A DNA stretch of 64,000 bases from Alteromonas sp. (lineage in GTDB: Bacteria > Margulisbacteria > Marinamargulisbacteria > UBA6595): positions 926 through 64,925 of the forward strand of contig CAXPTH010000021.1 in NCBI GenBank assembly GCA_964220215.1. The letters are read 5' to 3'. Below, in pieces: positions 2,850-59,455 of this stretch; the stretch's first letter is position 1, and the number at the start of each line of letters is the position of its first letter. The translations under genes were made by a program, and so were the position numbers. A model generated the notes under the pieces. The model saw only the letters and a list, made by a program, of their open reading frames with translations, made no database searches and had not been told where the DNA came from.

Positions 2850-4895
2850 ATGAGTGTGAGCATGTTAACCATCGCAACCGGTATTATTATCAGCATTGGC
2901 ATTCTGGGCCTGTGTTTAATTCGGCACGATACCCAATCCATATTCACGCCAAGCAGCGATGTTGCCCGACTCATTGGACTCATCCAAAACGGGTTGCGGG
3001 TCTTTCGAAACCGCAGCTTGATTAGCATGGCACAAATTATTCTTTATCTCAGCGTGCTTCTGGTTGGGTTATCCCTAGTGATCGAACACCCTTTGTCCAT
3101 TTGGCCCTATTTGATTGCCTTTGTGTTGGGCGGCAGTATTATGAGTGCCATTGGCATTGGCATGCAACCGATATTTATCCGACTATTGCCCGCCATTATT
3201 CACCGCGCCAATCGCCAACTATCCCCCAGCCTCAGCACCACCTACTCAGCCTGCGTCGGAATTGGCTTAGTTAGCACCAGCGCGCTGACATTGGGTTTAA
3301 TGGGCTGCTACACCTGGTTGGGAGCAACGCCCTTGGTGGGCTACGGGGTGGGTTGTGTGTTGGTGGCCTTCGTGTGGCGCATCGCCGGTGGCATCTTTAA
3401 ACCGGCTTCGGATATTGCCTCGGATTTTGTGAACACCAAGTCGGTATCCGATGGACGCAACGTGGCCATGATTTTAGATACAATGGGCGATTTTATTGGG
3501 TCATTTTTAGGCTTTGGGATTGATCTGCTCAGTGCCTTTGTTTTTGCCTTAGTTGGCTGTTGTTTGTTTGCCATTAGCCTGTACCAGTCTGGGGTCATTC
3601 ACGCCGATACCTACATCATGCTCATGGAACTGCCCTTTACAATTGTAGCGATTTCACTGTGCATCGGAGCCGCTAGTTATTTCTGGGCACGGTATCGAAT
3701 CACAAAACGCCCCAATAATATTTTGCTGGAAACCCTCTACATCACCCTCATTATTAGTGCCTTAATTATCTATGTCTTGATTAATAACGTATGGGTGGAC
3801 ACCACCTTCAAATCCGTGTGGATCAACGACCAACGCCTATCGTTGTTAATTCCCTATTTGATCGGCCTCGTGGGCGCCTTGATCATCAGCTTTACCTCCG
3901 AATACATGAGTGCGCCTTACTTTTCGCCCAACAAAACCGCCAGCAAACGCATCGAATTTGGCAGCTCCCTCACCCTACTGCATGCCCTGAGCGACGGGTT
4001 TAAAAGCCATGCCATTCAAGTGAGTTATGTGTTTATTATTATGGGCAGCAGTGTGTATTATGCCGGGATTTATGGGGTGGCCTTTGCCAGCTTGGGCATG
4101 CTGTCTATGACCCCCCAGTTGGTCGCCATTGTTAGCTTTAAAGCCTTAACTGGCAGTTTGTATAAACTATCGAATTTGGCTAAATTGCCCCATATTGAAA
4201 GCAAAAATATTAAAAAACTATACAGCATTAGCCAAACCACCATTGCCCTTGGCAATAGCTTTAATACCAGTGCCGCTACGATTGCCTCAGCCGGCTTATT
4301 TCTCGCTTTGTTGCTCATTGTGACCCCGGACACTAGCCTTAGCATGACCCTGACCCCCACACTCGTTGTTGGGCTATGTGTGGGGATTACGGCTCCGTTT
4401 GTCATCCGATCCAGTCTGCTCAGTGGCATGGTGCATGTGGCCATTAAACTGATCGAAGAAGTGAATCGCCAATTGCGTGACATCCCGTATCTGAAAGAAA
4501 ATAAAGCCACTCCCGATAGCGTCACAGCCACAGACCAAGCCTGCCGGCACATCATGGGCATGCTCGCCATCCCGGGCTTGCTGGTCACCCTGCTGCCTCT
4601 GGTCATGGGCTATGCCCTGGGCGCCCCTGCCGTTTTGGGATTTAGCCTGGGTATTTTGATCAACAATCTGATCCAAACCTACTACTGGTCCAATACTGGC
4701 GAAACCCTCGGGCATATTAAAACAACCATTGCCTCCGGCCGCCTGGGTGGCCCCCAAAGCACAAACTTCACCGCCATTGTGCGCGCCGATGCCATGGGCG
4801 ATGCGTTTAAGGACTTGGTGGGGCCCCACGGCAGCATTATATTAAAATGCGCAACTATTATTTCAGCACTTTTAATGGTATTATTGGCTCTATGA
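2850..4895 (+). CDS. hppA: Membrane-bound pyrophosphatase (M-PPase/HppA) family protein, highly divergent
   Basis: Polytopic membrane ORF. RIAGGIFKPASDIASDFV...GRNVAMILDTMGDFIGSFLGFGIDLL and the C-terminal ADAMGDAFKDLVGPHGSIILK align to M-PPase signature blocks. Start moved to the ATG at 2850 to avoid overlapping the divergent gene; 2808 is also possible. Confidence 0.7.
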   Translation: MSVSMLTIATGIIISIGILGLCLIRHDTQSIFTPSSDVARLIGLIQNGLRVFRNRSLISMAQIILYLSVLLVGLSLVIEHPLSIWPYLIAFVLGGSIMSAIGIGMQPIFIRLLPAIIHRANRQLSPSLSTTYSACVGIGLVSTSALTLGLMGCYTWLGATPLVGYGVGCVLVAFVWRIAGGIFKPASDIASDFVNTKSVSDGRNVAMILDTMGDFIGSFLGFGIDLLSAFVFALVGCCLFAISLYQSGVIHADTYIMLMELPFTIVAISLCIGAASYFWARYRITKRPNNILLETLYITLIISALIIYVLINNVWVDTTFKSVWINDQRLSLLIPYLIGLVGALIISFTSEYMSAPYFSPNKTASKRIEFGSSLTLLHALSDGFKSHAIQVSYVFIIMGSSVYYAGIYGVAFASLGMLSMTPQLVAIVSFKALTGSLYKLSNLAKLPHIESKNIKKLYSISQTTIALGNSFNTSAATIASAGLFLALLLIVTPDTSLSMTLTPTLVVGLCVGITAPFVIRSSLLSGMVHVAIKLIEEVNRQLRDIPYLKENKATPDSVTATDQACRHIMGMLAIPGLLVTLLPLVMGYALGAPAVLGFSLGILINNLIQTYYWSNTGETLGHIKTTIASGRLGGPQSTNFTAIVRADAMGDAFKDLVGPHGSIILKCATIISALLMVLLAL

Positions 4896-6254: not shown

Positions 6255-7259
6255 GTGGGCGCCGATAACCGCAACTACAACGACGGCATGGGCGACATGC
6301 AAGGCTACCGAACCATGCCCAATTTCAAATGGTTTCGACTCGCTGTTGTGAGTATTGTTATGATTATAAGCACCATTGCCTTGGTGTTTTTAGGGCATTT
6401 TGTGTCCTCGAAAAACCAACCAACCCGACCCCTAACCGTTCCAGCTTCCGTACCCCCACCCGCTGTTATAGAACCCACCACCGAAAACCCAATGCCACGG
6501 GTGCCCGAACGGTTTGACTATAAGCTCATTACCAGCACCCATCTTGGGTACCAAGCGGCTGAAACACACGCCAACCAATTCGCTACGAAAGGCATTGAAT
6601 CGTATATTTGGGAAGTAAACCAAGCCGACCCCCCCTTGTATGCGATTCAACTGGGGGCCTACCCCACACGCAGTGACTGCGACAGCCAAGTCCTCCGGCT
6701 CAAAAAAACCGGCATTTTGGCTCGGTGTTGGCACCCTGCTGATGGATTTGACGGCTTTCATGTCGATAAACCCAAACCCACCACCTATTACAAAGTAATT
6801 TTGGGGGCATTTCCCAATTATGCAGCCGCTCAAGCAGCCAGCGCTGGCCTGTCCCCCTATATTTGGGAAAACAACGGCATTTACGTTGCTCAAGTGGGCG
6901 CCTATTCCACAGAGAATGAAAGCCAAGCCGCCGTTGAAAAACTCGCCAAACGGGGCATCATTAGCTACGTTTGGCAAGAACGCGACGGATTTGATGCCAT
7001 TCGAAACCGAGCGGTTTCAACCCCACCCCCCAAACAAAATTACCATGTTGTTATGGGCGTATTTAAAACGCAAGAATTAGCCAAACAAAAAGCATCCAGC
7101 ATCGCCAGTATAACCAACTACATTATTTGGGAAAACGCATTGGGCGATAAAACGGTGTATCGCATTTTGTTGGGATCCTACACAAGCAAAGCCGATGCGA
7201 AAACCAAACAAAAGGAACTAAATACCCAAGGCATTCAGTCCTTTGTTATTTTTGAATAA
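6255..7259 (+). CDS. SPOR-repeat (peptidoglycan-binding) membrane protein
   Basis: N-terminal TM segment (FRLAVVSIVMIISTIALVFLG), a P-rich linker, then about 4 SPOR-like repeats (YAIQLGAY..., YKVILGAF..., YVAQVGAY..., YHVVMGVF..., YRILLGSY...). The start (GTG at 6255) is uncertain. Confidence 0.7.
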   Translation: MGADNRNYNDGMGDMQGYRTMPNFKWFRLAVVSIVMIISTIALVFLGHFVSSKNQPTRPLTVPASVPPPAVIEPTTENPMPRVPERFDYKLITSTHLGYQAAETHANQFATKGIESYIWEVNQADPPLYAIQLGAYPTRSDCDSQVLRLKKTGILARCWHPADGFDGFHVDKPKPTTYYKVILGAFPNYAAAQAASAGLSPYIWENNGIYVAQVGAYSTENESQAAVEKLAKRGIISYVWQERDGFDAIRNRAVSTPPPKQNYHVVMGVFKTQELAKQKASSIASITNYIIWENALGDKTVYRILLGSYTSKADAKTKQKELNTQGIQSFVIFE

Positions 7260-7271
7260 ATAAATTAAAAC

Positions 7272-7300
7272 TTGACGTTATTCTCCAGGCTCGGTACACT
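7272..7300 (+). promoter_or_regulatory. Candidate sigma70-type promoter upstream of comM/yifB
   Basis: TTGACG (7272-7277), 17-nt spacer, TACACT (7295-7300). Lies only ~8 nt before the ATG at 7309, so the mRNA would be nearly leaderless. Confidence 0.3.
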
Positions 7301-7308
7301 GAGTCATT

Positions 7309-8832
7309 ATGGCTTTATCCAAAACCTTGGGCACAACATTATCCGGCATTGACGCCATACCCATTGTTATTGAAATTGACGCCCACAACGGGCTGCCTGG
7401 CGAAACCATTGTTGGCTTGCCCGATACCGTTGTTAAAGAAAGCCGTATTCGCATTCGATCCGCCATCAAACAGTCTCAGTTTAAGTACCCGCTGCAAGCC
7501 TATACGATTAACTTGGCCCCAGCTGAAATTAAAAAAGAGGGCCCTTTACTTGATTTGCCAATTGCCATGGGAATTTTACAAGCCACCGGCCAACTGCCTG
7601 CCGATGAAGCCTCCTTGTTTGTGGGCGAGCTAAGCCTAGGCGGCGCCCTTCGGCCGGTTCATGGCATTGTCTCCATTTGCGATATGGCCAAAGCCAACAA
7701 AATTGCCCGTGTCTTTGTCCCCGCCGACAATTACCATGAAGCCGCCTTGATTAAAGGCATTCACATTATTCCCATTCAAAGCATCATGGATGTATGCGAA
7801 TACTACCAAACCGGAACCGTCCCTCAGCAACCCCCTAAACCCACGCGTTTGGTTGCCAGTGCCACCCAGCTAGACTATGCCGATGTTCGGGGCCAACACA
7901 TGGGCAAACGCGCCTGTGAATTGGCCGCCGCTGGCCGACACAATATTTTATTCATTGGCCCTCCCGGATCGGGCAAGACCATGTTAGCCAAACGATTGCC
8001 CAGCATTTTGCCCAAGCTGACCCACGATGAATCCATTGACGTGTATAAACTCATGAGTATATCTCGGCACAAACTTGATGGGGATACGCCCTGCCAAGAC
8101 CGGCCGTTCCGAGACCCCCACCACACCATTTCCTACGCCGGCATGGTGGGCGGTGGCCGATCCCCACGCCCCGGAGAAATTAGCCTCGCCCACCACGGCA
8201 TTTTGTTTTTAGACGAACTGCCGGAATTCCAACGCCCAGTCTTAGAAGCCTTGCGACAACCATTAGAATCCCATGCCATTACCGTATCTCGGGCCAATTT
8301 TTCACTAAACTATCCCGCCAATTTTATGCTTGTGGGCGCCATGAACCCCTGCCCATGCGGCTACTGGGGCGATACCAAACAATCGTGTACCTGCCCCGAA
8401 TACAAACGCAAATGGTATTATCAAAAATTATCCGGCCCCTTGCTAGACCGAATTGACATTATTTGCACCATTCCACGACCCGATCAGGCGGCACTCATTA
8501 ACCCCCATGCCAGTCCAGACACCCAAACATCCCGTGTGATTAAAGATCGGGTTGCCATGGCCATCCAACGGCAACAGGCCCGCCGGACCCAGCCCAACGA
8601 AGCCCCCTGGCAAAATGCCCAACTCGCTATTCAAGAAGACTGCTTTGCGCTCAACGATAGCTGCCAACAACTGATGCACCACATTATGGACAAAGGACTG
8701 CTAACTGGACGAACATTTACAAAGTTAATTCGTGTCGCCCGAACCATTGCCGATCTCGCCGACAGCGACACCATTGAAACCCAACATATTACGGAAGCCT
8801 TACAGTTTCGGCAACTGCAACACGCTACTTAG
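7309..8832 (+). CDS. comM: YifB/ComM family Mg-chelatase-like AAA+ ATPase
   Basis: 507 aa. Lon-protease-like N-domain (GLPGETIVGLPDTVVKESRIRI), Walker A GPPGSGKT, FLDELPEF, and a C-terminal Mg-chelatase subunit ChlI-like region. Confidence 0.9.
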   Translation: MALSKTLGTTLSGIDAIPIVIEIDAHNGLPGETIVGLPDTVVKESRIRIRSAIKQSQFKYPLQAYTINLAPAEIKKEGPLLDLPIAMGILQATGQLPADEASLFVGELSLGGALRPVHGIVSICDMAKANKIARVFVPADNYHEAALIKGIHIIPIQSIMDVCEYYQTGTVPQQPPKPTRLVASATQLDYADVRGQHMGKRACELAAAGRHNILFIGPPGSGKTMLAKRLPSILPKLTHDESIDVYKLMSISRHKLDGDTPCQDRPFRDPHHTISYAGMVGGGRSPRPGEISLAHHGILFLDELPEFQRPVLEALRQPLESHAITVSRANFSLNYPANFMLVGAMNPCPCGYWGDTKQSCTCPEYKRKWYYQKLSGPLLDRIDIICTIPRPDQAALINPHASPDTQTSRVIKDRVAMAIQRQQARRTQPNEAPWQNAQLAIQEDCFALNDSCQQLMHHIMDKGLLTGRTFTKLIRVARTIADLADSDTIETQHITEALQFRQLQHAT

Positions 8833-18833: not shown

Positions 18834-20026
18834 GCCGCTGGGTGCTACTGATTTTACTGTGGGTGGGGCTGTGTACCCACACGCAGGCAGCCCTAACCTT
18901 AGATGCAGCGCTTCAACACACCTTGGCCAACAATTACGCCATCCAGATTGCCCATACCCAAGCGGCCCGTGCCCAAACCCAAACTGGCCTGAGCCAAGCC
19001 AATCTCTTGCCCACCATTACCGTTCGCCAAACCAAGACCGATCAACCCACCAGAACCCCGGGCATCAGCACTCAAACCAACCAAACTACTCAAACCACCG
19101 GGACCATTCAGCAAACCCTCTTTGCGGGACTCACCGGCATTACCCAGTGGCGCAAAAACAAATCGTTGGCCGATCTGACTCAACTGCAAGCCGAACAGGT
19201 CTTGGAAACCACCCTGTATACCACCACGTTGGCGTTTTATGACCTGGTGGAGGCCCAGTATCGGCTGGCCGTTGCTGAATCGGTTGTTGCCCTATCGGAA
19301 GACCGGCTCAACCGTGTCCGGATTCGGGCGGACCTGGGCGGGGAGTCCCAGTTGGCGGTACTCAATGCGACTGTGGATTTGAATACCGACAAAACAGAAT
19401 ACCAGAACGCCTTAGCGGCACGCAAAGCCGCCGAAATCCAGCTCAACCAACAGCTCAACCAAGCCTTAGACACCCCGCTCACGGCGGAATTACCGCCGCC
19501 CCTATCCGTGCCCACTTCCGGCATTCGTCAGAATCGGGCGATTCGCATTGCTGAGCAGTCGCATCGGTTATCGCAGTTGGATCAGCAGTTGGTGCTGGGT
19601 GCGCTATTCCCGAGTGTCACGGTTCGGCATACGATGCAAGACGCCCGGGAACCGATCAATACCCTCGAAGCTCAGTGGTCATTGACTGGATGGCGCCATA
19701 AACAGGCGTGGGATGCTGCGACGCTGACCCATGCCGAAACGAATTTAAACAGAGCCCGTGTCCGGCAATTGGTGCAGGCCCAATGGGCCCAAGCTTTGGT
19801 GGATTATGACCGCACGCGGACGTTGCAGGCGCATGAGTTGGAGACAGTTCGGGTGGCGAAGCGGAATTTTGAGCGCACGCAGGCGTTGTTTCATGCGGGG
19901 CAAGTGTCTGCGTTGGTGTTTCGGGATGCCCAGTTAAAATACACCCAAAGCCAGTACCGCGCCCACCAGGCTCAGATTCAGTTGGGCAAAGCCATTGCCC
20001 GAGTGCATCAACTAGCGGGGGGTTGA
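18830..20026 (+). CDS. TolC-like outer membrane efflux protein (OEP family)
   Basis: ATGA overlap with the MFP gene. Signal peptide, then an OEP repeat beginning LTLDAALQHTLANNYAIQIA. Two internal OEP repeats. Confidence 0.8.
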   Translation: MSRWVLLILLWVGLCTHTQAALTLDAALQHTLANNYAIQIAHTQAARAQTQTGLSQANLLPTITVRQTKTDQPTRTPGISTQTNQTTQTTGTIQQTLFAGLTGITQWRKNKSLADLTQLQAEQVLETTLYTTTLAFYDLVEAQYRLAVAESVVALSEDRLNRVRIRADLGGESQLAVLNATVDLNTDKTEYQNALAARKAAEIQLNQQLNQALDTPLTAELPPPLSVPTSGIRQNRAIRIAEQSHRLSQLDQQLVLGALFPSVTVRHTMQDAREPINTLEAQWSLTGWRHKQAWDAATLTHAETNLNRARVRQLVQAQWAQALVDYDRTRTLQAHELETVRVAKRNFERTQALFHAGQVSALVFRDAQLKYTQSQYRAHQAQIQLGKAIARVHQLAGG

Positions 20027-23000
20027 GGTTGTTGTTTGGATTTGGGGTTGGTTTTGGGATCGGCTTTGGGTTTGGTAGCGGCTGATTTGGTAGCGGCTTT
20101 GGCTTTGGGATCGGCTTTGGCTTTGGCTTTGGGATCGGCTTTGGCGGCAGCTTCGGCGGCTTTGGCTTCTTTGCGGGCTTTGGAATCGGCGGCGGCGGCG
20201 GCGGTAGCGGCGGCGTTTTTGGCTGATTGTTTTGCGGCTTTTAATATTACTTCGGCGTTTTCGACTTTGGTTTGGGCAAAACTGATTTTTCTACTTAACT
20301 CATTATTGCGGTCTTTGATTTGTCGGATGCATTCTATAATTTCTTCATTATTCTCAAAACCTTGGGCAGCTCTATTTGCCTCAATCAATAAATCATCGAC
20401 ACGTTGCCTCTCTTGTTTAACTTTTTCCATATATTCTTGTGTTTCTGCTAATTGACTTGCCGCTTTATCAACTTTCGTTTTAGAATTTTCTTCTAATTGT
20501 GGGGGGGTGCCTATGTCACTATTTTTCAATTTTTCTTTTGCATTTTGAACAGCCTGCAAAGCTTCTTTTAACTTCGATAGTTTCTCTTCAATGTTTATAA
20601 CGACTTGATTGGCAGCTTCAGCGGCTTTATTGGCAGCTTCAGCGGCTTTATTGGCATCGGCAGCGACTTGATTGGCAGTTTCAGCGGCTTTCTTGGCAAT
20701 TAATTTAGTTTCTTCTCCTAAGTATGTTTTATTGTCGGCAGCTTTAGCGGCTGTCTCGGCAGCTTCAGTAACTTTTTCCATGGTAGCTTTGGCAGCTTCA
20801 GCGGCTTGTTTGGCATCGGCAGCGGCTATCTTGACAATTTGGACAGCATCTTCAAGTTTATTAACATTGGGAGCAGTTTTAGCCCTGTTCTTGGCATTAG
20901 TGGCAGCGGTCTGGGCATTTGCAGCAAAATCCTTGGCAGTGGCAGCAAAAGCTTTGACTTCTTTTAATAAATTTTCAACATCTTTATTCGGGTTTAACCG
21001 CATTTCTTCCGATTTATGACATTCCTTCAAATGCTTAAGTTGATCAATACCATAATCAGATTTGTCTCCTTTATCCATGGTTGCTTCCAGAGCACTCAAG
21101 TCTACAACCATTTCCTGGATTATTGCTAAAAGTTGTTTGTATTTTTCCCGTCTTATATCTCCTCCCTGACCACGTTCTAATATATTTTCTTTCAGATTAT
21201 TTTGAAACCATGTTGAAAATTCTACATTTATTTTTGGTGAGAGTGTACCTTCAATTTTTAAACGAATACCATCAAGATAGTTTCTATTAGTATCTTCGCT
21301 ATTATTTAAAATTTTAGGCAATAAGTCGTTCTCCTTATATGTTTCTCCGTTTGTTCCATAATACTCAGCTACTAATTTCTTAATACTATTAAAATCTTTT
21401 TGATTAGTCAAAGTAAGAAAAGCCTTTTGTTTAGCCGCAAGCAGGTCCTTTTGATCACCTATATCAAGACTTTCTTGAGGCTTTAGGGCATCTATTAAGG
21501 CCTTTATCTTTTCTTTTAATTTTTCAGGGTAACTTTTATCCAATTCTGTTTCTTCTAGCACTTGAACAACAGCTTTAAATTTACTTTCATGTTTTTTATA
21601 TTTGCCACATGGGAAAATGGTTTTCATCTCTTTTGTAAAATCTTCTGCATTAATTCGCTCTAGCGCAAGATCTTGCAATGTTGAAATAAAATCAACTGCA
21701 TCCTTGTCAGTAGCGTCGTTTTTATCAACACTTAAAAGACTGTTAACAATATTCATTTTAACCTCTGCCCGTTTTGATATAACCATCATGTTGAGCATAT
21801 CTTTAGCATAGGGATCTGTATTCAAATCTTTGTTTAAGTGCTCTATTATTCTTTCTCTGTTTTGTTTACCGTAGTATGTGATTTGTCCAAGTGATTCTTT
21901 TTCAGATCTGCGATACCGCCCAATAAATTGAACCACATTCATAGATGCCCCTGATTCCATTAAATTGTCCGATGCAATATGAAACTCTACAGCTAGATTA
22001 TCACCGTCTGCAGGTTGTTTAGAAGAACTAGAAAACTCATCAAAATCATGGCCATAACAGTTATCCCCAAAGTAGACAAAATCAATTTTATTTTTTGCTA
22101 CTGTTTGTTTTTTCAAAAACTCCACTGCTTTGTCTTTGCTAGTAAATGTTTGTGTCACTACATCGGTTGTAATTTCATACTCTCTTGACTTAACAATAAC
22201 ATACTCTCTTGACTTAACAAAAACCCGTGTTCTATTAGTATTTTGAGAAAATGAAGTTTGTTCATCACTAAGCCAAAAGTACCGTTGTTTCTCAGGATCT
22301 TCACCCAAAACAGAATCAATAGTTTCTTGTGTTTGTGGTGTATTCAAATTCTTATTAAGATCAATCGCTATCAACTGGTTAATTTGTGAGACTGCCGCAT
22401 CTCTATGTTGACCAAGGGTTGCATCAGTTGCATCATCAAATGTCAATTCTTTTAAACGAGACTTTATATTCTCGAGTTCATCTTTATTCAGTTTTAATTC
22501 TGTTAGTTCTTTTAATGTGGCCAACCAATTCGCTAGATAAGCGGTTGTCCCTGGTGATGTAGCAATATACTGATGGACGCCAATATTCAAACTCATATTA
22601 TTTAAAAATGCTTGGCATATGTATACTAAGTCATTTGAGTCTCCAATTGATGCTTTAAATATTTTCTTTTTATCATCTGGGATTATATTACACAAGCCTT
22701 GTATAAAGTCTTGTTTTTCTTTTTGTTCTGAGTCTGAAAATGTATGCCTCTCATCAAAAATAAATGCTATAGTATCAGTTTGTTTTGCAGAATCGTCAGA
22801 GGCTTGTTCGGGACTTTGTATTCTGCTTAATTCTGTCTCAACAGCTTCCAGAAATTTTGTAGTTTTTTGTTCCATTTCATTTTCAAAACCAGGAATTGGT
22901 GAAAATAAATGAACATTTGGTTTTTTCATTGATTGCATCATCGTCATCAACGCCGTTTTACCGGCTCCAGTCCCCGCTGACCATCGGTTATAAAGGCCTT

Positions 23001-26000
23001 TTGTTGGTTTCTTCGAAATAAAATATTGGACCACCTGCTCCTGAGTTGGAATTTTTTTAGATGCGTTAACGAGTTCTGCAAAACATTGGTTTATAGATTC
23101 ATTTGCTAGATCAGCATCTGTCCATGGAATTCCAGTCTTACCAAGACTATCTTGTACATCTTGTGTTGTATATGACTTCAAAAAATCAGTCATACTATAC
23201 TTTCTTCCTTTTAATGTGGGGTCATTATAATACCTCAAACTTCCTGCATGTTTTTTTAGTGTCACCATTGCGATCACCGTTTCTATATTTGGGAAGGGGG
23301 GGGGAGATCCATCTGCTGTTGTATCTGCTGTTGTATTTGATGAGTTAGCTTTTTGATAAAGATCAGCGAATTTGCCTTTACTTTTGGTTAAACCTGTTTG
23401 TGATAATTTTTCTAAAACAGCTTGTATTTGTTCAATATATGTGGGTGGATTTGTTCCTGAGCTCCCTGCTGACGTAGCCGTTGTACCCTTCCTTTCAAAT
23501 TTATCCTTCAGAAAAGCCAAACGAATCATTTCTTCATTTTTATTTAATTGATTTTCTGTTTCTGTTTCTTTAGACCATTCAGCAAGTGTTTCCATATTGT
23601 CACTGTATTTTTGGATGGTTTGGATGGTTGTGCTGTGGTTTGAATCACTTCTTTGAACGTCTAATCCTTTGAGATATTCTAGATAGTCTTGAACCGCTTG
23701 CTGTTTTTGGGATTTGATATCAGTTTCTAACTCTCCCAAAGCTGTTGCTAAATCTTCCACAGCTTTTGTAGCCTCTTTTTTGGCTGTTTGGGCTGTTTGG
23801 GCGTCTGGAACACCATCACCCTCGGCACCGAGCACTGCGCTGTATTCCGTATCGGCTGCCTCTAGACTACTCTGAAGTTCTTCATGCTTTTGGTCTGCTT
23901 TTAAATCGTTTAACTGCTCCACTATCGCCTGAAGGGCTGCAATTTTGGCAGCTGGGGCTGCGCCTGAAGCTGTGGATGGTATCGCTTTTTTTGTGTCTTC
24001 TATCTTGACTGTTGCTGCCTTGGCTTGGGTGGTAATGGATTCATACGCTGCTGTCGCTGCTTCCGCTGCCAACCGCTCTTCTTCTACTCTTATAACTGCT
24101 TCTAACTCCCCCAAAGCTGACACAGCGGTTGTGGCGTTTTGTTTGGCTGTTATAGCCTTTGTTTGGGCTTCTGTAGCCTTTTTTTGGGCTTCTGGAACAC
24201 CCTCAGCACCGAGCACGCCGCTTTTTGTTGCTTCTTTATCGACTTGATCTAGACGCTCTTTAAGTGTTTGATAACTTTTCGTTTGGTATTCTTTTAATTC
24301 TTTTAACTGCTCCACTCTCTCCTGAAGGGCTTCAATATTGCCCTCTGAAGCTGGGTCTTCGCCTGAAGCTGTGGCTGGTATCGCTTCTTCTAATTTTGTT
24401 TTTATCTCGGTTGTTGCTTCGTTGGCTTTGGTGGTAATTTCTCCATACGCTTTTTTAGCCGCTTCTGCTGCTTCCGCTGCCAACCGCTCTTCTTCCGCTT
24501 TTCGGGCCGCTTCTGCTGCTTCCGCTGCCACCCGCCTTTCTTCCGCTTTTTTCGCTGCTTCCGCTGACTCTTTTCGGGCCGCTGCCTCTGCTTTTTCTAA
24601 TTCTCCCACAGCTTTTCCTAACGCTTCCACAGCTACTTTAGCTTCTTCTATCTTGCCTGTTGCTGCCTTGGCTTCGGTGGTAATGTCTCCATACTCTGCT
24701 ATCGCTGCGGCGGCTTTTTTCGCCGCTTCCGCTTCCGCTTTTCGGGCCGCTTCCGCTGCTTCCGCTGCCAACCGCTCTTCTTCCGCTTTTCGGGCCGCTT
24801 CCTCCGCTTTTTTCGATTCGAGGGATTGGATAGATTCTTCTAAAGTTCCCAAAGCTTTTTTTAACGCTTCCACAGCTGTTTCTAAAGCTTTCACAGCTCC
24901 TTCGGCTCCTTTTTTGGCTTCTACACCATCCGCACCGAGCACTGCGCTGTATTCCGTATCGGCTGTTTTTAGACGATCTGCAAGTTGTTTATAAAGTTCC
25001 GGTTGTTCTGCTTGTAATGGTTTTAACTGCTCCACTATCGACTGAAGGGCTGCAATCTTGGCAGCTGTGTCTTCGCCTGAAGCTGAGGCTGTTTTCGCTG
25101 CTTCTACTTCTCTTTTCGCTGCTTCTGCTTTTTGTATCTCGGCTGTTGCTTCGTTGGTAATTAGTACATACTCTGCTATCGCTACTGCGGCTTGGATGGC
25201 TTTGATGGCTTCTTCGGCTGTTGTTTGGATGGCTTCGTTGGATTTTTCTTTGATGTCTTTGATGGCTTTGATGGATGCTTCGGCTGTTGTTTGGATGTCT
25301 TGGATGTCTTTTTCGGCTGTTGTTGGGATGGGTTTGATGTCTTTTTCGGCTTTTTCTTGGATGGCTTGGATGGCTTTTTCTTTGATGGCTTTGATGGCTT
25401 CTTCTTGGATGGCTTGGATGGCTTGTGCTTTGATGTCTTCATTGGCTTGGATGTCTTGGATGGCTTGGATGGCTTCGTCTTTGATGAAGCGGATGTCTTT
25501 GATGAAGAGGATGTCTTGGATGTCTTTTTCGGCTTTTTCTTTGATGGCTTTTTCTTTGATGGATTTGATGCCTTCTTTGAATGTGTCTGGGATGTCTTTG
25601 ATGGCTTTTTCTTTGATGGCTTTGATGGCTTTTTCTTGGATTTTTTGGATTTTTTGGATGGCTGCTTCCACTCTCACCTTACGAACTTTATACGCCGCTT
25701 GTATCTTTTTTGTGGCGGCTTCTTTTTTCGCCGCTTCCGCTGCGGCTTTTTCCGCTGCCACCCGCTTTTCTTCCGCTTTTTGGGCCTTTTTGCCTTCTTT
25801 CGTTTGTGTGTCTAAGAGGACTTGTTGAGCGTCTTCTTCCGCTAAGCGGAGGATGTCTTCCAGTATGTTCGCCACTGATTCAGAATTTTTGGGGTCATTG
25901 AGTGCTTTTTTTAGTGCTTCCGCTGATTCACTAAGACTTTTACTACTACTACCACCAGCAGCATCCTTGGGAGTACCACCAGTGCCATCGGCTACACTTA

Positions 26001-27076: not shown

Positions 27077-27250
27077 CTTAAAAGTCCCCTTTAGGGGATT
27101 TAGGGGCCTAGGGATTTAGGGGCTTAGAAAGTCCCCTTTAGGGGATTTAGGGGCTTAGAAAGTCCCCTTTAGGGGATTTAGGGGCCTGGGGGTAGTGGCT
27201 TGGGGATTTAGGGACTTGGGAGTAGTGGCATAGGAATTTAGGGGCCTAGG
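27077..27250. repeat. G-rich tandem repeat array (~31-bp period) with embedded TCCCCTTTAGGGGA hairpins
   Basis: Two perfect 31-bp copies of TTAGAAAGTCCCCTTTAGGGGATTTAGGGGC at 27124-27154 and 27155-27185, plus a near copy at 27077-27107. Degenerate ~30-bp units continue to ~27245. Six GG(G/A)ATTTAGGG(G/A) cores. Confidence 0.85.
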
Positions 27251-27261
27251 AGTTTAATCAA

Positions 27262-54068: not shown

Positions 54069-54889
54069 CCAGTTTATTCATTGTTTGCCTATTTACTGGC
54101 TTAATTCATTTAACTGAAAGTTTGGTTTATTCGTTTCGATTGGCGGGCATCCGAACCCGACAATTGGCCATTGCCCTGTCTTTTGTTACTTCGACGCTAC
54201 TGGTATCTCGATTGTCAAACTTATTTCAAGCGCCGTTGTTGGGCGCCATGGTGGACCGGGCGATTTTAAACCAAGCGGCACCCACCCTGGCCCTCACCTT
54301 TCGGATCGTGATTCTTGCGGCAACCCTGGGGGCCTTGATCGGCCTGATGCTGACACCAACGGCCGTTCGGGTATTTCAAACAGCCGTTGTGTCGTTTCGC
54401 CAACACGGATCGATTATTCGACTGATGCTTAAACTCCGGCATGGGCGCACGTGGACACGGCTCTGGCATCAGTGCCAACGCCCCAAATTTCGCCCAATGC
54501 TTGCGCTACTGGCCCGGTGGCGCTATTTACCCAAGTCCTTTTTATACCTTAATATTTTTGTCACAGCCATCTATACGATTGGGGTTTTATGCGCCCTGTA
54601 TGCGGGAGCCTTGTTGCCTGAATTCCGAGCAACGGCCATTCAATTATCGGGATTAATTAATGGCATGGCAACGATCTTGCTGACGCTCTTTGTGGACCCT
54701 GCCGGTGCCCGAATCACAGACCAAACCTTTCACAATCATCGCCCCGAAGCCGATGTCAAAGCCACGATTGTGTACTTGCTACTGGGTCGACTCATCGGCA
54801 CGGCCATGGTTGCCCAGCTCCTGTTTTTGCCCTTTAGTCATTATTTAGCGACGGTAACCCGGTGGCTTTCCACCTGGTTGGTTCTATGA
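54065..54889 (+). CDS. Polytopic membrane protein, possibly lipid II flippase Amj (DUF2837) family
   Basis: LFIVCLFTGLIHLTESLVYSFRLAGIRTRQLAIALSFVTSTLLVSRLSNLFQAPLLG resembles the Amj/DUF2837 N-terminus as I recall it. ATGA overlaps on both sides. Confidence 0.5.
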   Translation: MTSLFIVCLFTGLIHLTESLVYSFRLAGIRTRQLAIALSFVTSTLLVSRLSNLFQAPLLGAMVDRAILNQAAPTLALTFRIVILAATLGALIGLMLTPTAVRVFQTAVVSFRQHGSIIRLMLKLRHGRTWTRLWHQCQRPKFRPMLALLARWRYLPKSFLYLNIFVTAIYTIGVLCALYAGALLPEFRATAIQLSGLINGMATILLTLFVDPAGARITDQTFHNHRPEADVKATIVYLLLGRLIGTAMVAQLLFLPFSHYLATVTRWLSTWLVL

Positions 54890-56856
54890 TTACCAACCCC
54901 TTGGCCTATACCGAAGCCATTCATCAGTTAATTGCGTATACCCTGGCCTATGAATTGGGTACACCAATGGTATCGGATGCGGCGTATGATCAGCTGTATC
55001 AACAAGTTCAACTGTATGAACGCAACAACCCCACCCACATTGCCGAAAACTCCCCCACCCAAACATTTCCCCACACCAATTTATTCCAGCCCTTTCAGCA
55101 TGATCCCAACACCCCCATGATCTCCTTGGCCAATGCCTACACGCGGGATGATTTGACTGCGTTTGACACCCGTATCAAAAAAACCATTCAAGCGCCGGTC
55201 ACCTACTGCCTAGAGCCCAAGCTAGACGGGGTGGCCGTCTCCGTGCATTACGACGCTGGGCGATTGCGTGTGGCCGCCACGCGTGGCAACGGCACCCAGG
55301 GGGACGTGATTACCGCCCATGTTCGAACCATTGATCATTTACCCAAAACGCTACCCGAACCCGTGACCCTGGAATGTCGGGGTGAGTTGTTTATGACCCA
55401 TGCGGACTTTCACGACCTAAATGCACGCAGCGACACCCCCTTTTCAAACCCACGCAATACGGTTGCGGGCACATTGCGACAATTGGATCCGGCGGTCAGC
55501 CAAGACCGGCGACTGTCGATTATCATCTACCAAGGCCTGCCCCAAACGGGGCCATCGATTGACACGCATCATGCCATGATTCAGTGGTTAACCGAGTTGG
55601 GGCTTCCCACCAATCTGCCGCATGTGTCCGTGCACCATACGATTGAATCCGCCTATGCGGGGGTTCAAAATTTCTTTCAGCATGCATCGCTGGGCTATGA
55701 CACCGATGGGTGTGTGATTAAAGTCAATGAATTGGCCGCCCATGCCGAGCTGGGACGAACGGCCAAAAGTGTCCGGTGGGCGGTTGCCTACAAACCTGTG
55801 GCCAAGCGCGCCCTCACCACGGTCACAGCCATTGAGCCGCAGGTGGGTCGAACGGGGGTATTAACACCCGTGGCCCATCTGGAACCCGTGGCAGTTCAAG
55901 GCGTGGTTATTCAACGGGTCTCGTTATACAACTACGATGAAATTGAGCGCTTGAACATTCGTCCGGGGGATCGGGTTGAAGTGGCTCGTGCGGGGGATGT
56001 GATTCCCAAAATTATGGCCGTCGTTTGCCCCAGCTCGGATCCATTGCCCCCACTGCCCACTCAGTGCCCGGTATGTTCCAGCGATGTCCTTCACGATGGG
56101 GCGGCGTTGCGGTGCCCCAATGTGGGCTGCTTGGCCCAGCTCAAGGCCCGCCTCACCCACTACGCAAGTCGGGATGCGCTGAATATTGATGGGTTGGGAC
56201 CGGCCATTATTGAGCAATTGGTGGATACCCAGTTGGTGCATCGATTATGCGACTTATACACGGTGTCGGTGGACCAATTCATGCAGTTGGATAAGTTGGC
56301 CGAAAAATCAAGCCGGCAGTTGGTGGATGCGATTGCGGCCACCCAAACGCCCACCTTGGGCACGTTTTTATATGCCATGGGCTTGCCGGGTGTGGGAGCA
56401 ACCGTAGCGCGGCAATTGGCCCACCACTTTCAAACCCTGGATGCCCTATTGGCCACCCAGGCTGAGGCGTTGGTTGAATTGGACGGCATTGGGGAGCGGC
56501 TGGCCAGCGCCATTGTCAGCCAATTGCCAACCCTGCGTCAGGTATCCGATGAACTGTATGCGGTAGGCCTTCGAATTCAATCCCCCACAGCATCAACCCC
56601 TACGCCAGAGACACCGTTTACCAATAAAACCGTGGTGATTACCGGAACATTGGCCACCCTAAGCCGCAAAGACGCTGAGGCGATGGTGCTAAACTTGGGG
56701 GGACAGATCGGCCAAACCGTGAGCAAAAAAACCGATATCGTGGTGGTTGGCGAATCCGCCGGAAGCAAAGCCAAAAAAGCCGCCGATCTGCAAGCCGCCG
56801 GGGTTCCTATCGTCATCTGGGATGACGCAACGTTTTGTCAGAAACTAAACAGTTAA
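54886..56856 (+). CDS. ligA: NAD-dependent DNA ligase
   Basis: Adenylation motif CLEPKLDGVAVS (KxDG), OB fold, Zn finger (CPVCSS...CPNVGC), HhH repeats and a C-terminal BRCT domain. Confidence 0.95.
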   Translation: MITNPLAYTEAIHQLIAYTLAYELGTPMVSDAAYDQLYQQVQLYERNNPTHIAENSPTQTFPHTNLFQPFQHDPNTPMISLANAYTRDDLTAFDTRIKKTIQAPVTYCLEPKLDGVAVSVHYDAGRLRVAATRGNGTQGDVITAHVRTIDHLPKTLPEPVTLECRGELFMTHADFHDLNARSDTPFSNPRNTVAGTLRQLDPAVSQDRRLSIIIYQGLPQTGPSIDTHHAMIQWLTELGLPTNLPHVSVHHTIESAYAGVQNFFQHASLGYDTDGCVIKVNELAAHAELGRTAKSVRWAVAYKPVAKRALTTVTAIEPQVGRTGVLTPVAHLEPVAVQGVVIQRVSLYNYDEIERLNIRPGDRVEVARAGDVIPKIMAVVCPSSDPLPPLPTQCPVCSSDVLHDGAALRCPNVGCLAQLKARLTHYASRDALNIDGLGPAIIEQLVDTQLVHRLCDLYTVSVDQFMQLDKLAEKSSRQLVDAIAATQTPTLGTFLYAMGLPGVGATVARQLAHHFQTLDALLATQAEALVELDGIGERLASAIVSQLPTLRQVSDELYAVGLRIQSPTASTPTPETPFTNKTVVITGTLATLSRKDAEAMVLNLGGQIGQTVSKKTDIVVVGESAGSKAKKAADLQAAGVPIVIWDDATFCQKLNS

Positions 56857-57013
56857 GGAACCACTGCTCGTTACTATACGGCTTCCCCTTCGATACACTT
56901 GCTGCCGCAATCACTCAGGGAGCGGACTCACTTGTTTGAATTTTTCAATTTAAATCACCCGTTTCGCAACAGTCCCCATATTGGCTTAGTGTGTTGTGGC
57001 ATGGTGGGGGGGG

Positions 57014-57223
57014 TCATAGACCACCCCGCCCTTCGGGCACCCCTCCACGGGAGGGGAATTTTTTTTAAGTGGTACACCAACGTTAATCATTAACTCCCAC
57101 TCCATTTATTATTCCCATCCCATGGAGGGGATTTTTTTTAAGTGGTACACCAACGTTAATCATTAACTCCCACTTCATTTATTATTCCCCTCCCATGGAG
57201 GGGTGCCCGAAGGGCGGGGTGGT
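57014..57223. repeat. Repeat block left of DUF559: 38-bp element (copy A, +), two ~73-bp tandem units, 38-bp element (copy B, inverted)
   Basis: A is ACCACCCCGCCCTTCGGGCACCCCTCCACGGGAGGGGA at 57020-57057. Units start at 57067 and 57140. B, at 57186-57223, is the reverse complement of A apart from the 3-nt hairpin loop. Confidence 0.9.
57040..57066 (+). terminator. Intrinsic-terminator-like hairpin (first of eight hairpins, seven T-tailed) downstream of ligA
   Basis: CCCCTCC-ACG-GGAGGGG followed by AATTTTTTTT. The same hairpin plus T-run is reiterated in the tandem units through 57924; the copy B hairpin at 57187-57203 lacks the T-run. Confidence 0.4.
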
Positions 57224-57578
57224 TCTTTAAAACCGCCAAAACTGTATCCATATCTTGCAAAATGTCTTTTACGTTAATACGGATCACCGTTAATCCTAAA
57301 CCATTTAGAAACGCATCACGCTCGGCATCGTAATCTTCACGGCCTTGGTGTGAGGCGCCATCGGCTTCTATAACTAACGATTTTTCAGCACAATAGAAAT
57401 CAACAATATAGTGACCTATAATTTTTTGGCGATCAAAATCTAGCCCTTTTAATTGCTTTTTCTTGAGTTGATTCCACAGTAAGGCTTCGTGCAACATGCC
57501 CGATTTACGAAGTTCTTTAGCGCGTTCTTTGAGTTTGGGGTTATAGGGGAGAGATTTGTAGTTTTTTGTTTGTCTCAT
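57156..57578 (-). CDS. DUF559 (Vsr-like PD-(D/E)xK) endonuclease-domain protein
   Basis: EALLWNQLKKKQLKGLDFDRQKIIGHYIVDFYCAEKSLVIEADGASH...DAERDAFLNGLGLTVIRI is the DUF559 core. The last ~23 codons are encoded by repeat copy B plus the adjacent unit. Confidence 0.85.
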   Translation of the reverse strand: MRQTKNYKSLPYNPKLKERAKELRKSGMLHEALLWNQLKKKQLKGLDFDRQKIIGHYIVDFYCAEKSLVIEADGASHQGREDYDAERDAFLNGLGLTVIRINVKDILQDMDTVLAVLKNHPALRAPLHGRGIINEVGVND

Positions 57579-57924
57579 AGACCACCCCGCCCTTCGGGCA
57601 CCCCTCCACAGGAGGGGAATTTTTTTTTAAGTGGTACACCAACGTTAATCATTAACTCCCACCCCATTTATTATTCCATCCCATGGAGGGGAATTTTTTT
57701 TAAGTGGTACACCAACGTTAATCATTAACTCCCACTCCATTTATTATTCTCCTCCGATGGAGGGGAATTTTTTTTTAAGTGGTACACCAACGTTAATCAT
57801 TAACTCCCACCCCATTTATTATTCCCTCCGATGGAGGGGAATTTTTTTTTAAGTGGTACACCAACGTTAATCATTAACTCCCACTCCATTTATTATTCCC
57901 TCCGATGGAGGGAAATTTTTTTTT
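57575..57924. repeat. Repeat block right of DUF559: 38-bp element (copy C, +) followed by four ~73-75-bp tandem units
   Basis: Copy C lies at 57581-57618. Units start at 57629, 57702, 57777 and 57851. Each reads AAGTGGTACACCAACGTTAATCATTAACTCCCAC(Y)(Y)CATTTATTATT, then a CCCTCC-NNN-GGAGGG hairpin and a T8-10 run. Confidence 0.9.
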
Positions 57925-58045
57925 GAATCCAGCTCGATGACCCACTGGAAACTGCGACTTTGCGCAGTGTGACGAATAAAAAAGGTCTTCTTCTGCACAG
58001 TGTGACGCGAGGCGGTTATTTTTAGTCCAGTCAATGCCATCCATG

Positions 58046-58651
58046 CTACAGGTCCTCCGTCTTGAATTCGCTATAGCCTTCGTAAAAATAACTCACATCA
58101 ATGCCCTCCATAAACAAAGAACGATCATCAACTTGGCCGGTGAGTGCGGTTTTTAGCAGGGCTTTGATTTCCAGATCTTTCACCACACTGCGCTCCATGG
58201 CTGAAAGATAGTTTTCTTTGTCGGCTTGGTTCCAATCGATAACCTGTTTTATTTCTTGCTTGAGTATTAAATCTAGCCAAATGCGAGTCGTTCGGCCATT
58301 TCCTTCTCTGAACGGGTGCGCAATATTCATTTCGACATATTTTTGGATGATCTCATCAAAATGACTCTGGGGCATAGCATCAATATGGTCTAAGGAAGCG
58401 CTAAGGTACATCACTGGCACAAATCGAAAGCTACCCTTTGAAATATTTACGTCGCGCATTTTTCCTGCAAAGTCGTAAATGTCTTCAAAAAGATAGGCAT
58501 GAATAGTAGATAGCCCCTTGAACGACCCGACTTCTACATTGTTGATATCACCAGAGTCAAAAAGCTGTTTGGCCTTTTGTTTGCTTATTTTTTCTTCTAA
58601 TTTGGCTAGTTCAACCTGATTCGTGATGCCTAATTTATTTTTCAGTATCAT
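58046..58651 (-). CDS. fic: Fic-family protein (AMPylase-type motif, class III with C-terminal inhibitory helix)
   Basis: 201 aa. HPFREGNGRTTR (res 112-123) matches HxFx(D/E)GNGRxxR. C-terminal SYFYEG (res 187-192) matches the (S/T)xxxE(G/N) inhibitory motif. Confidence 0.9.
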   Translation of the reverse strand: MILKNKLGITNQVELAKLEEKISKQKAKQLFDSGDINNVEVGSFKGLSTIHAYLFEDIYDFAGKMRDVNISKGSFRFVPVMYLSASLDHIDAMPQSHFDEIIQKYVEMNIAHPFREGNGRTTRIWLDLILKQEIKQVIDWNQADKENYLSAMERSVVKDLEIKALLKTALTGQVDDRSLFMEGIDVSYFYEGYSEFKTEDL

Positions 58652-58824
58652 GCGGGTTCTCCCTCAATCTCCACTACAATCGCATCAATATCCGCACGCA
58701 GGTGATAAAACAGGGTACCTAAAACATATTGCTTAAAATCCCAGCCATCAACAGCACCGCGAACATCGTTCGCAATTTTCCATATCTGGCTTTGTAGTGA
58801 GGCTCGTTGCTGTGTATTTGTCAT
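58648..58824 (-). pseudogene. hsdM: Type I restriction-modification methylase (HsdM) N-terminal stub
   Basis: 58-codon ORF, absent from the track because it is under 60 aa: MTNTQQRASLQSQIWKIANDVRGAVDGWDFKQYVLGTLFY, then unrelated residues. GGAG RBS. Its TGA overlaps the fic ATG (ATGA). Matches the HsdM N-terminal domain only. Confidence 0.75.
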
Positions 58825-58996
58825 GGTCTTTCTCCTTATTATTGGCTCGGTTGACTACCCGTTAGATTTAGCATGGCTTTAGACACCGCAATTTCCTAAA
58901 CATTATATCCTAGTTTACATTAAATAATTGGCAGTCGTAAGTGTTTTTACTTTAGCCTAAACGCGGCCCCAATCAGATTTTCAATCTGAACAAAAG

Positions 58997-59455
58997 CTAA
59001 ACAATATCAAATGGAATATAGCCGTTGTATTTAAATGCGGTCATCAAGTCGGGGTTCACAAATAAATAGCTATGGCGTTGAATACGGTACTGGCCCCAAT
59101 CGCATTGGGAAATTTCTTGAAAGGACTCGCACCGAACCGCCACACAATCATTGGTAAACGGACTGTGGACCACCAGCGCATCCAGACTCTCACCACTGGT
59201 TTTATGGGTCATTTTAATCAAATCCCACTCAAAAATATACTGACTATTTTTGTCTTTAACCGTGCTATACGCATCTTTGTGTTCATACGCAATGGCATCC
59301 CCCGCCCACCACAGCAAATCCGTCGAATAATAGTGCAGGGTGGGCGATACATAGCGCATATAACCCACAATATGATCCCCATTGCGCAACCGAAACAACG
59401 AGTACGCTTGTGTATCCAGCATCCGGCTACGCCGCCTCCATTTTAAAAAATGCAT
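58997..59455 (-). CDS. Hypothetical protein
   Basis: 152-aa ORF. An alternative ATG at 59422, 12 nt downstream of a GGAGG, would give 141 aa. No family recognised. Confidence 0.45.
   Translation of the reverse strand: MHFLKWRRRSRMLDTQAYSLFRLRNGDHIVGYMRYVSPTLHYYSTDLLWWAGDAIAYEHKDAYSTVKDKNSQYIFEWDLIKMTHKTSGESLDALVVHSPFTNDCVAVRCESFQEISQCDWGQYRIQRHSYLFVNPDLMTAFKYNGYIPFDIV

Follow-up and report, generated by a model that had tools for sequence, protein, structure and literature searches.

A DUF559 nuclease gene and a cross-phylum two-hairpin DNA module as a candidate REP/RAYT-like cassette

The subject of this analysis is a 64,000-nucleotide stretch of DNA, hereafter the window, taken from contig CAXPTH010000021.1 (positions 926 to 64,925) of assembly GCA_964220215.1, which is deposited as Alteromonas sp. 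and belongs to the Marinamargulisbacteria in the GTDB taxonomy. It also matches contig JBERCX010000021 of assembly GCA_041228815.1, and the 90% clusters to which its S4 and GlnA proteins belong carry the name Candidatus Marinamargulisbacteria. At 57014-57924 the window carries a gene for a small DUF559 nuclease that lies between inverted copies of a short GC-rich module with two hairpins, and this cassette is embedded in an array of ~74-bp tandem units (U units). The module is found in many phyla, and DUF559 is the sole protein family that recurs beside it, among the top families of the flanking open reading frames (ORFs). We consider it somewhat more probable than the opposite that this region represents a single instance of a cassette of DUF559 nuclease and two-hairpin module that is widespread and spreads horizontally, a partnership resembling that of repetitive extragenic palindromic (REP) elements and their REP-associated tyrosine transposases (RAYT).

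A two-hairpin module shared by many phyla

The module is ~44 bp long. It starts with ACCACCCC or, more generally, (A/C)CCACCCC, continues with a first hairpin (hp1), in which the structure is conserved and the sequence is free, and ends with a second hairpin (hp2), ACCCCTCC-loop-GGAGGGGAAT, in which the sequence itself is conserved. The window copies have the form GCCC-TTC-GGGC for hp1 and CCCCTCC-NNN-GGAGGGG(AAT) for hp2. Direct and inverted modules are denoted M+ and M-, respectively.

One genome per species was scanned with the pattern CCACCCCGCCC-NNNN-GGGCACCCCTCC, which has 23 specified bases. It matched at least 120 loci, which belong to at least 15 phyla, as compared to ~0.02 expected by chance. 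The phyla are Cyanobacteriota, Bacteroidota, Planctomycetota, Bacillota, Pseudomonadota, Spirochaetota, Fibrobacterota, Calditrichota, Armatimonadota, Acidobacteriota, Chloroflexota, Verrucomicrobiota/Kiritimatiellota, Rhodothermota and three groups of the candidate phyla radiation (CPR). The hp1 loop of the pattern has 4 nt and that of the window copy 3 nt, hence the genome of the window was not retrieved; the longer-loop variant is the common form among modules. The GGAGGGG 3' arm of hp2, which lies outside the pattern, was found in 127 of the 132 matches with at most one mismatch and a loop of 2-12 nt, and it is usually followed by AAT. A module can stand alone, in a pair or in a tandem array, and it can lie in frame within a gene.

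The first hairpin covaries. A stem of at least 4 bp was present in 45 of 65 distinct inserts, read from the ends, in comparison to ~4.5% of shuffled sequences, and at least 12 different stem sequences were seen; the pairs in pattern-free copies include GCCC/GGGC, GGCC/GGCC, GGTC/GACC, GTCT/AGAC, GGCGC/GCGCC, GGCAGGC/GCCTGCC and GTCAGCC/GGCTGAC, among others. When 30 distinct modules were aligned, 97% of the positions expected to pair did so (48-66% in slid controls), and there were 13 double-change cells versus 3.4 in shuffles, a number that none of 500 shuffles reached. Both hairpins belong to the predicted fold of the single-stranded DNA, at ~-11 kcal/mol (z between -2.4 and -3.2). An Rfam E-value scan of 56000-59000 gave sub-threshold chance matches only, the best one reaching 20 bits where the gathering score is 56, so the module belongs to no described RNA family.

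Association of the module with DUF559

Of 133 sampled modules, 15 lie directly beside a DUF559 homologue, always with the same junctions. The 5' junction, AATTCCCCTCC-nnn-GGAGGGG-TG-hp1'-GGGGTGGT, lies a few bases ahead of the DUF559 start, and at the 3' junction the module bases AAC-CAC-CCC-GCC-CT (N-H-P-A-L) end the DUF559 domain. Among 150 ORFs flanking the sampled modules DUF559 was the top Pfam family (9 ORFs), followed by HsdR helicase domains (4, belonging to HsdR proteins that carry DUF559); every other family among the 25 top families listed was seen at most twice, and no transposase was found among these 25.

The same picture emerges from the protein side. Of the 120 best homologues, which are 66-94% identical, at least 87 have the peptide HPAL.GTPP.EGN, or a frame variant of it, as their C-terminal end; HPALRAPLQRRGI is the tail variant in which the length of the hp1 loop shifts the frame. 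By reading of the listed tails, about 28 of the 120 have two to ten modules in a read-through tail. A covariance model built from 30 modules (R1) detected M- upstream and M+ downstream of the gene in all seven close-homologue loci that were fetched by protein (L123, L124, L125, L130, L132, L133, L134). Among representatives of 50%-identity clusters, whose flanks were read directly, the module peptides NSPPLEGC/W..GVV, FPSxGGV..GRGG and PPRPxGTPPxEGN flank DUF559 down to ~50% identity. Although synonymous sites of DUF559 have reached saturation between phyla, the blocks of the module are identical. Module and DUF559 have been inherited together over long times and across phyla.

A first-pass annotation of this DNA, made from the letters alone, had raised the question of whether DUF559 genes are systematically flanked by what it described as a 38-bp element. 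They are, in all seven fetched loci and in at least 87 of the 120 tails. As to the wider occurrence of the two repeats that it described, the 38-bp element proved to be distributed across phyla, and the U unit was found only at the locus of this lineage and in one relative.

The DUF559 protein

The ORF product matches Pfam PF04480 at residues 15-116 (E=7.5e-34, 116.3 bits versus a cut-off of 20.6). Its last 21 codons derive from module B and U2 and lie outside the DUF559 domain. By sequence the protein matches PDB entry 3HRL (NGO0050, a DUF559 structure) with E=1.7e-18. An AlphaFold model (mean predicted local distance difference test score, pLDDT, 84.2) was compared to solved structures using Foldseek: the best match was again 3HRL (E=1.7e-5, TM 0.63/0.79) and the second best the catalytic domain of the homing endonuclease I-Bth0305I (3R3P_B, E=6e-4, TM 0.61/0.72), and the match to Vsr itself (1CW0/1VSR) was weak (E=1.4). 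The assignment to the PD-(D/E)xK class that had been made from the sequence is supported by both the Pfam and the 3HRL matches.

The conserved core D ... E-x-D-G-x-x-H is present as IVDFYC ... IEADGASH. All of the 53 homologues compared have D60, E71, G74 and H77, and at least 90% of them have D73. Purifying selection acts on the gene: six comparisons gave dN/dS ratios (nonsynonymous to synonymous substitution rates) of 0.06-0.14, and the comparison with the L123 copy, which is 97% identical, gave 0.34. The nuclease is apparently active. To our knowledge, DUF559 proteins of this type have no defined substrate or role. The family is very large: 20,761 clusters at 50% identity match the window protein.

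Repeat anatomy of the locus

The features of the locus are listed in Table 1. A 27-nt core of the module, ACCACCCCGCCCTTCGGGCACCCCTCC, is present in three copies with no mismatches, at 57020 (+), 57197-57223 (-) and 57581 (+); these lie in modules A, B and C, and beyond them the core was not found across the 64-kb window, for which shuffles predict zero matches. A 34-nt core of the U unit is present in six exact copies, all on the + strand, and each U unit starts with it. The Tandem Repeats Finder program reports 57050-57203 (period 73, 2.1 copies, 96% matches) and 57611-57924 (period 74, 4.2 copies, 95%). Modules A and B form an inverted repeat of 40 nt that is 98% complementary, and modules B and C plus their flanks form one of 54 nt that is 85% complementary. 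Module C ends 2 nt before the DUF559 ATG (CAT at 57576-57578).

Module and U unit share one hairpin: the 3' half of the 38-bp element, i.e. hp2, is the same hairpin that closes each U unit. Since hp2 is common to all U units, only ~20 nt (ACCACCCC plus hp1) are unique to A, B and C. The hp2 of U2 doubles as the hp2 of module B, and if everything between the hp2 loops of B and C is deleted, a regular U-to-U junction results. The covariance model R1 gives weak matches (23-27 bits) on the hp2 parts of the U units. The body of every U unit has a perfect palindrome, GTTAAT-C-ATTAAC (57083-57095 in U1), which is a candidate protein-binding site; a scan of both strands found no promoter-like site in the U array. 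The GC content of the repeat region is 41-42%, compared to 49% for the window. The neighbours of the cassette are housekeeping genes, with ligA on one side and fic plus an HsdM fragment on the other.

The exact core matches and the Pfam search thus agree with the first-pass annotation on the places and strands of three GC-rich elements, six U units and an intact DUF559 gene. Its claim that A with U1 and C with U3 are nearly identical direct repeats holds as well: TCATAG+A+U1 and TCATAG+C+U3 align over ~132 nt with few differences. The shared TCATAG is real, too. Its interpretation as the relic of a second DUF559 start did not stand, because in contig L123, a relative, this junction starts another gene, AAA_13.

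Table 1. Features of the cassette, the U array and the adjacent genes (positions in the window)
Feature	Position	Strand	Remarks
ligA	54862..56856	+	convergent with DUF559; A and U1/U2 are its first downstream terminator-like hairpins
TCATAG ahead of module A	57014-57019	+	junction remnant to lost downstream gene
Module A	57018..57060	+	ACCACCCC, hp1 GCCC-TTC-GGGC, ACCCCTCC-ACG-GGAGGGGAAT; R1 67.1 bits, E=7.5e-15; exact core
U1, 73 bp	57067..57139	+	~54-nt body with GTTAATCATTAAC palindrome, degenerate hp2 hairpin, T8 run
U2	57140..57203	+	terminal hp2 hairpin 57184-57203, also hp2 of module B
DUF559 ORF, 140 aa	57156..57578	-	Pfam PF04480; conserved domain encoded by 57219-57578
Module B, 3' module of DUF559 gene	57183..57225	-	R1 63.9 bits; first bases encode (N)HPAL
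Module C, 5' module of DUF559 gene	57579..57621	+	R1 67.7 bits; inverted relative to B
U3	57629-57701	+	tandem U3-U6; each closed by hp2-like hairpin, then T8-9
U4	57702-57776	+	as U3
U5	57777-57850	+	as U3
U6	57851-57924	+	as U3
fic	58046-58651	-	Pfam Fic, E=1.5e-13
HsdM N-terminal fragment, 58 aa	58648-58824	-	HsdM_N, E=2.2e-6; overlaps fic start by 4 nt

Array variability and a decayed operon

A 22-mer of the U body was found in four JGI contigs only, plus the ENA contig L123. Two of the JGI contigs (L127, L129) have the flanking genes of the window, and the other two consist of DUF559 and arrays only. The U unit is specific to the Marinamargulisbacteria lineage and consists of one module half, hp2, and a ~54-nt body, tandemly amplified.

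The DUF559 protein of L123 is 97.5% identical over the 120-aa domain and 93% over the full-length query. Here the cassette is part of an intact operon that reads hsdM, rhuM, hsdS, [hp2-body-M-] CT-ATG DUF559 [M+-body-M-] CT-ATG AAA_13. The junction that starts AAA_13 is GGGGTGGTCTATG, and on this basis module A with its TCATAG is the junction to a downstream gene that the window lineage has lost; L127 shows the same remnant. Intact type I restriction-modification operons with the same cassette were found in L123, L124 and L134. The window cassette sits in a decayed type I restriction-modification operon, of which the hsdM fragment is a remnant.

The number of U copies upstream and downstream of DUF559 differs between the assemblies: it is 4:2 in the window, at least 6:2 in L002, at least 1:7 in L126, 3 to at least 3 in L128, 3 upstream in L129 and 1:1 in L123. 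These differences are real or stem from an array that assembles poorly, with both causes probably at work; short-read assemblies are systematically broken by it. Of the structural variants that had been suspected from the sequence, copy-number change is thus seen between assemblies, and inversion is not: there were no inversion variants among the population contigs, and the orientation of the gene and the U units is constant in the locus-spanning assemblies and L123. The hp1 loop of the 3' module is TTC in the window, where this module is a perfect inverted copy of the 5' module, and TAAA in L123, L126 and L128, which alters the frame of the C-terminal tail. This difference is consistent with conversion between modules.

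Comparable amplification is seen elsewhere. The complete chromosome of an unrelated gammaproteobacterial metagenome-assembled genome (MAG), L045, carries two arrays (6360-6960 and 3495-4146) of 7-9 full modules with a period of ~73-75 nt, i.e. ~7 helical turns, and with a linker that differs from that of the window. Seven full M- modules with a period of 73-74 nt stand there beside an internally deleted DUF559 remnant plus M+, and one array abuts a DUF559 gene reduced to ~12 codons. Repeats of the type (M-)n-DUF559-(M+)n or [M+-body-M-] with other linkers were found in L038, L132, L133 and L028, and module amplification beside DUF559 is also seen in P0071.

Cassettes and modules inside host genes

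Many cassettes reside in restriction-modification loci, either after hsdS (L123, L124, L125, L013, L073, L134) or before hsdR (L083); free-standing cassettes in ordinary neighbourhoods are found as well (L132, L133). Others are in frame within genes, namely in HsdR (L105, 1235 aa; L028; L050), in HsdS between the two target-recognition domains, in a DPPY-motif methyltransferase (L021), in a type IIG enzyme (L081) and in type ISP/MmeI enzymes. In-frame residence extends to housekeeping enzymes: DUF559 is found in fumarase C (P0410), a class-V aminotransferase (P0458), iPGM (P0468), QueA (P0399) and a Mur ligase (P0459), and in most of these five proteins the Pfam domain or domains of the host are split or lie on both sides of DUF559. 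Among the 150 best representatives, 43 reach a length of 300 aa or more. Cultured carriers include Balneatrix alpica, Desulfonatronum thiosulfatophilum, Serratia microhaemolytica ZS-11, Mesonia phycicola DSM 21425 and Bacteroides sp. 51. The in-gene copies are bounded solely by module peptides of 13-17 aa, and those whose N-terminal flank was read have no Met of their own.

Solo modules are also present in frame, in an AcrB-like pump, a nonribosomal peptide synthetase (NRPS) and a glycoside-hydrolase-like ORF (family assigned by eye). The ~26-aa insert of the AcrB-like pump is absent from all 69 orthologues with alignable anchors.

A comparison to empty sites was attempted for HsdR. Orthologues of 75-85% identity are free of DUF559, yet their loop holds other hairpin-type peptides; since the loop is hypervariable and has such other inserts, no clean empty site can be defined. 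In the HsdR homologues P0128-P0247 this loop lies between RA(T/S)G(F/Y) and ESPESYG, and the anchored segment is 38-93 aa long. Depending on the lineage it contains other GC-rich hairpin-repeat peptides (SSPLSGKGAGV, FDSAKPPVTRYLSEVEG) or apparent module scars (P.EGN-MVN-ESPESYG). The HsdR loop seems to be a general sink for hairpin elements.

One locus of the restriction-modification group, L073, has one complete cassette and, ~780 nt away, another copy that breaks off after 22 codons (6474-7749). The same hsdS 3' end precedes both copies, which points to a local duplication that took in the cassette.

How the cassette may work and what else could explain it

In the cassette one module stands just ahead of the start codon and is inverted, and the other is direct and overlaps the last codons. 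The mechanism is given here as a model. DUF559 may act on the module by binding, cutting or mobilising it: it would recognise the invariant CCACCCC, ACCCCTCC and GGAGGGG blocks on the hairpins, extruded as a cruciform or in single-stranded DNA, and nick there. Repair, gene conversion or template switching after the nick could then duplicate the module locally, giving arrays of the (M-)n-DUF559-(M+)n type, and occasionally a module or the whole cassette might be copied into another site. Insertion into an existing hp2 palindrome is a possible route, because removal of the cassette between the hp2 loops restores the regular U junction. In the Marinamargulisbacteria lineage the hp2 half and the ~54-nt body have been amplified, between fic and ligA, into a tandem array that is unstable in one natural population.

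A stronger form of this model can be put forward tentatively, and we hold it to be possible rather than probable: DUF559 cassettes may constitute a new class of selfish element, in which the nuclease would nick its own modules and thereby copy modules as well as the entire gene to new places, among them in-frame positions within loops of essential enzymes, where the insert would stay in the protein with neither intein nor intron nor splicing, and solo modules would be the footprints or landing pads of this process.

Several observations weigh against the favoured explanation. As many as 118 of the 133 sampled modules (~89%) have no DUF559 within 300 nt. The window holds only the three modules A, B and C and no further one in its 64 kb; several other genomes had multiple loci in the genome scan. 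No consistent target-site duplication was seen when the outer flanks of ~15 cassettes were inspected by eye, and no presence/absence polymorphism was seen between near-identical genomes. DUF559 had no tblastn match among 72,556 plasmids at E<=1e-15, a Serratia cassette had no blastn match in 5,426 E. coli genomes, and viral contigs contained only two DUF559 loci, one of them a close homologue. Between phyla the module hardly varies, in contrast to REPs, which diverge together with their RAYT, and some other universal constraint may be responsible for this. Lastly, the copy-number differences between short-read assemblies are perhaps partly assembly errors.

The main rival, which we regard as unlikely, is that the modules are autonomous hairpin elements, similar to REPs or to MITEs (miniature inverted-repeat transposable elements), whose spread is due to replication and repair in the host or to another enzyme. 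DUF559 would then merely be a frequent neighbour, and the module at its 3' end would attract further copies through homologous recombination or slippage. The large majority of modules without DUF559 speaks for this, as do the arrays and in-gene modules that exist without it, the many copies within larger repeats in, for example, the Clostridium MAG CROMO_A_128 and Chamaesiphon, and the other hairpin-type inserts hosted by the HsdR loop. It would not account well for DUF559 being the only recurrent neighbour in the 150 flanking ORFs, with no transposase in the 25 families listed, nor for junctions with DUF559 that are fixed at the nucleotide level across phyla, down to ~50% protein identity and despite synonymous saturation. 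Moreover, amplification occurs preferentially right beside DUF559 or its remnant.

The second rival is a cis-regulatory or insulating role, and here we see a rather small chance. The hairpins would be terminators, mRNA stabilisers or a 5'/3' panhandle that curbs the translation of a potentially toxic nuclease, and the U array would be a stack of terminators shielding DUF559 from ligA read-through. A scan for terminator-like structures found 10 sites versus 2.0 +/- 1.6 expected, all on the + strand, downstream of ligA or antisense to DUF559. The predicted transcript pairs the 5' and 3' modules into a ~40-bp stem that includes the start region (minimum free energy -183.7 kcal/mol, z = -10), and the stable fold of the two hairpins as DNA points the same way. 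Conversely, the T-run is lineage-specific: elsewhere AATT stands after hp2, with unrelated sequence behind it. Since modules of other taxa lack the T-run, the terminator-like look is local and does not define the module. Modules are furthermore found in both orientations and in frame in unrelated genes, and their cross-phylum identity is unexplained by a generic terminator role. A regulatory effect is compatible with the favoured explanation as a secondary, co-opted role.

We find it very improbable that the inverted modules are a programmed inversion switch that flips DUF559 or, in restriction genes, turns the host gene on and off. The gene is indeed flanked by inverted repeats of 40-54 nt, and 'DUF559 domain-containing protein' is 14-fold enriched among predicted targets of programmed inversion (PMC9881135, Table 1). 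This enrichment is a model prediction that is not discussed further there, no recombinase, transposase or Y1_Tnp gene lies within 10 kb on either side of the cassette, and one orientation is seen in all locus-spanning assemblies. As a side effect such a switch is possible, and the enrichment hints at it. That the array or its copy number is an artefact of short-read MAG assembly is hardly credible: seven of the eight contigs with an identical fic gene (L135-L142) stop 100-180 nt past fic, at the array edge, and L002 ends inside the array, yet independent assembly gave the same architecture, with identical unit sequences, in NCBI MAGs as well as in four JGI contigs and one ENA contig, and comparable arrays stand in the complete L045 chromosome, leaving only the exact copy number in doubt.

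Implications

No description of a DUF559-module system, and no repeat-related role of DUF559, was found in the open-access literature searched, in accordance with the first-pass annotation; an earlier account elsewhere is possible. A repeat-associated nuclease as such is of a known kind, and there is a real chance that the cassette is an in-frame selfish element of a new class. A DNA module that is coupled to DUF559 across phyla provides a first testable substrate for this very large family. If DUF559 does nick the hairpins, the REP/RAYT lifestyle would have a second solution, independent in its mechanism, and the in-frame copies would represent a nuclease cassette that colonises coding sequences of restriction and housekeeping enzymes alike. 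There are practical consequences as well: modules give rise to ORF calls that are chimeric or extended (the HPAL.GTPP.EGN tails), break metagenome assemblies and inflate predictions of programmed inversion.

Other repeats in the window

An unrelated hairpin repeat array is located at 27085-27260. It has ~31-nt units (AGTCCCCTTTAGGGGATTTAGGGGCTTAGAA), 2.4 copies of which are 100% identical and are followed by degenerate copies, and each unit has a CCCCT-TT-AGGGG hairpin. The region 20000-25700 contains very dense tandem repeats with periods of 6-66 in multiples of 3 (for instance period 66 at 25191-25400 and period 48 at 24448-24566), which suggests one or more large repetitive proteins, probably encoded on the minus strand.

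Comparison with known systems

The window U units resemble intrinsic terminators in that both consist of a GC-rich hairpin and a T-run. The Rickettsia palindromic elements (RPEs) are 100-150 bp long, confined to one genus and devoid of a nuclease gene, whereas the present module is ~44 bp long, cross-phylum and coupled to DUF559. With MITEs and insertion sequence (IS)-type transposons the cassette has in common terminal inverted repeats, here of 40-54 nt and 85-98% complementarity; it differs from them in that ~15 cassettes gave no target-site duplication and no transposase domain was found.

Vsr belongs to the same superfamily, has the same catalytic core and is likewise often found near DNA methyltransferase or restriction genes. 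However, Vsr is a housekeeping T:G mismatch nickase that is paired with Dcm and has no flanking repeats, and the structural match to it is weak. The systems beside DUF559 are of the type I, IIG and III N6-methyladenine (m6A) kinds, with no obvious role for T:G repair.

Inteins with a homing endonuclease are similar in that conserved enzymes (fumarase, iPGM, QueA, Mur ligase, SufS-like, HsdR/HsdS) harbour a nuclease domain in frame in their loops. The DUF559 insert has no splicing blocks and is only ~150-170 aa in total, and since it is bounded by Pro/Gly-rich peptides encoded by the hairpins, it presumably stays in the mature host protein. I-Bth0305I (EDxHD, Vsr-like), the closest solved fold after 3HRL, is also a selfish gene residing inside host genes. 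In contrast to it, DUF559 is here found without a surrounding intron or intein (the Rfam scan found no intron family), its insertions are in many different genes and not in one cognate target, and its flanks are conserved hairpin modules and not host exon sequence.

The closest comparison is that with REPs, with the bacterial interspersed mosaic elements (BIMEs) that they form, and with RAYT, a likeness first noticed in the first-pass annotation and in part upheld here. The system is not a member of the REP/RAYT group because two of four defining features differ: the enzyme has the PD-(D/E)xK DUF559 fold and not the HUH/Y1 fold (IS200/IS605-like) of RAYT, and the module starts with (A/C)CCACCCC in place of a GTAG/CGTC head. 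The module also has two hairpins with invariant C-rich blocks, and coding sequences often contain module and cassette in frame. REP-RAYT pairs are for the most part inherited vertically and specific to a lineage, whereas the module is near-identical across phyla, which implies horizontal spread. What the two systems share is the plan, i.e. one small nuclease gene between inverted copies of a short GC-rich palindromic repeat. In both, the repeat is also dispersed in inverted pairs similar to REPINs (L009, L026, L054) and in BIME-like alternating or tandem arrays with conserved linkers (L132, L045 and the window U array), and the hairpin structure of the module is maintained through compensatory changes.

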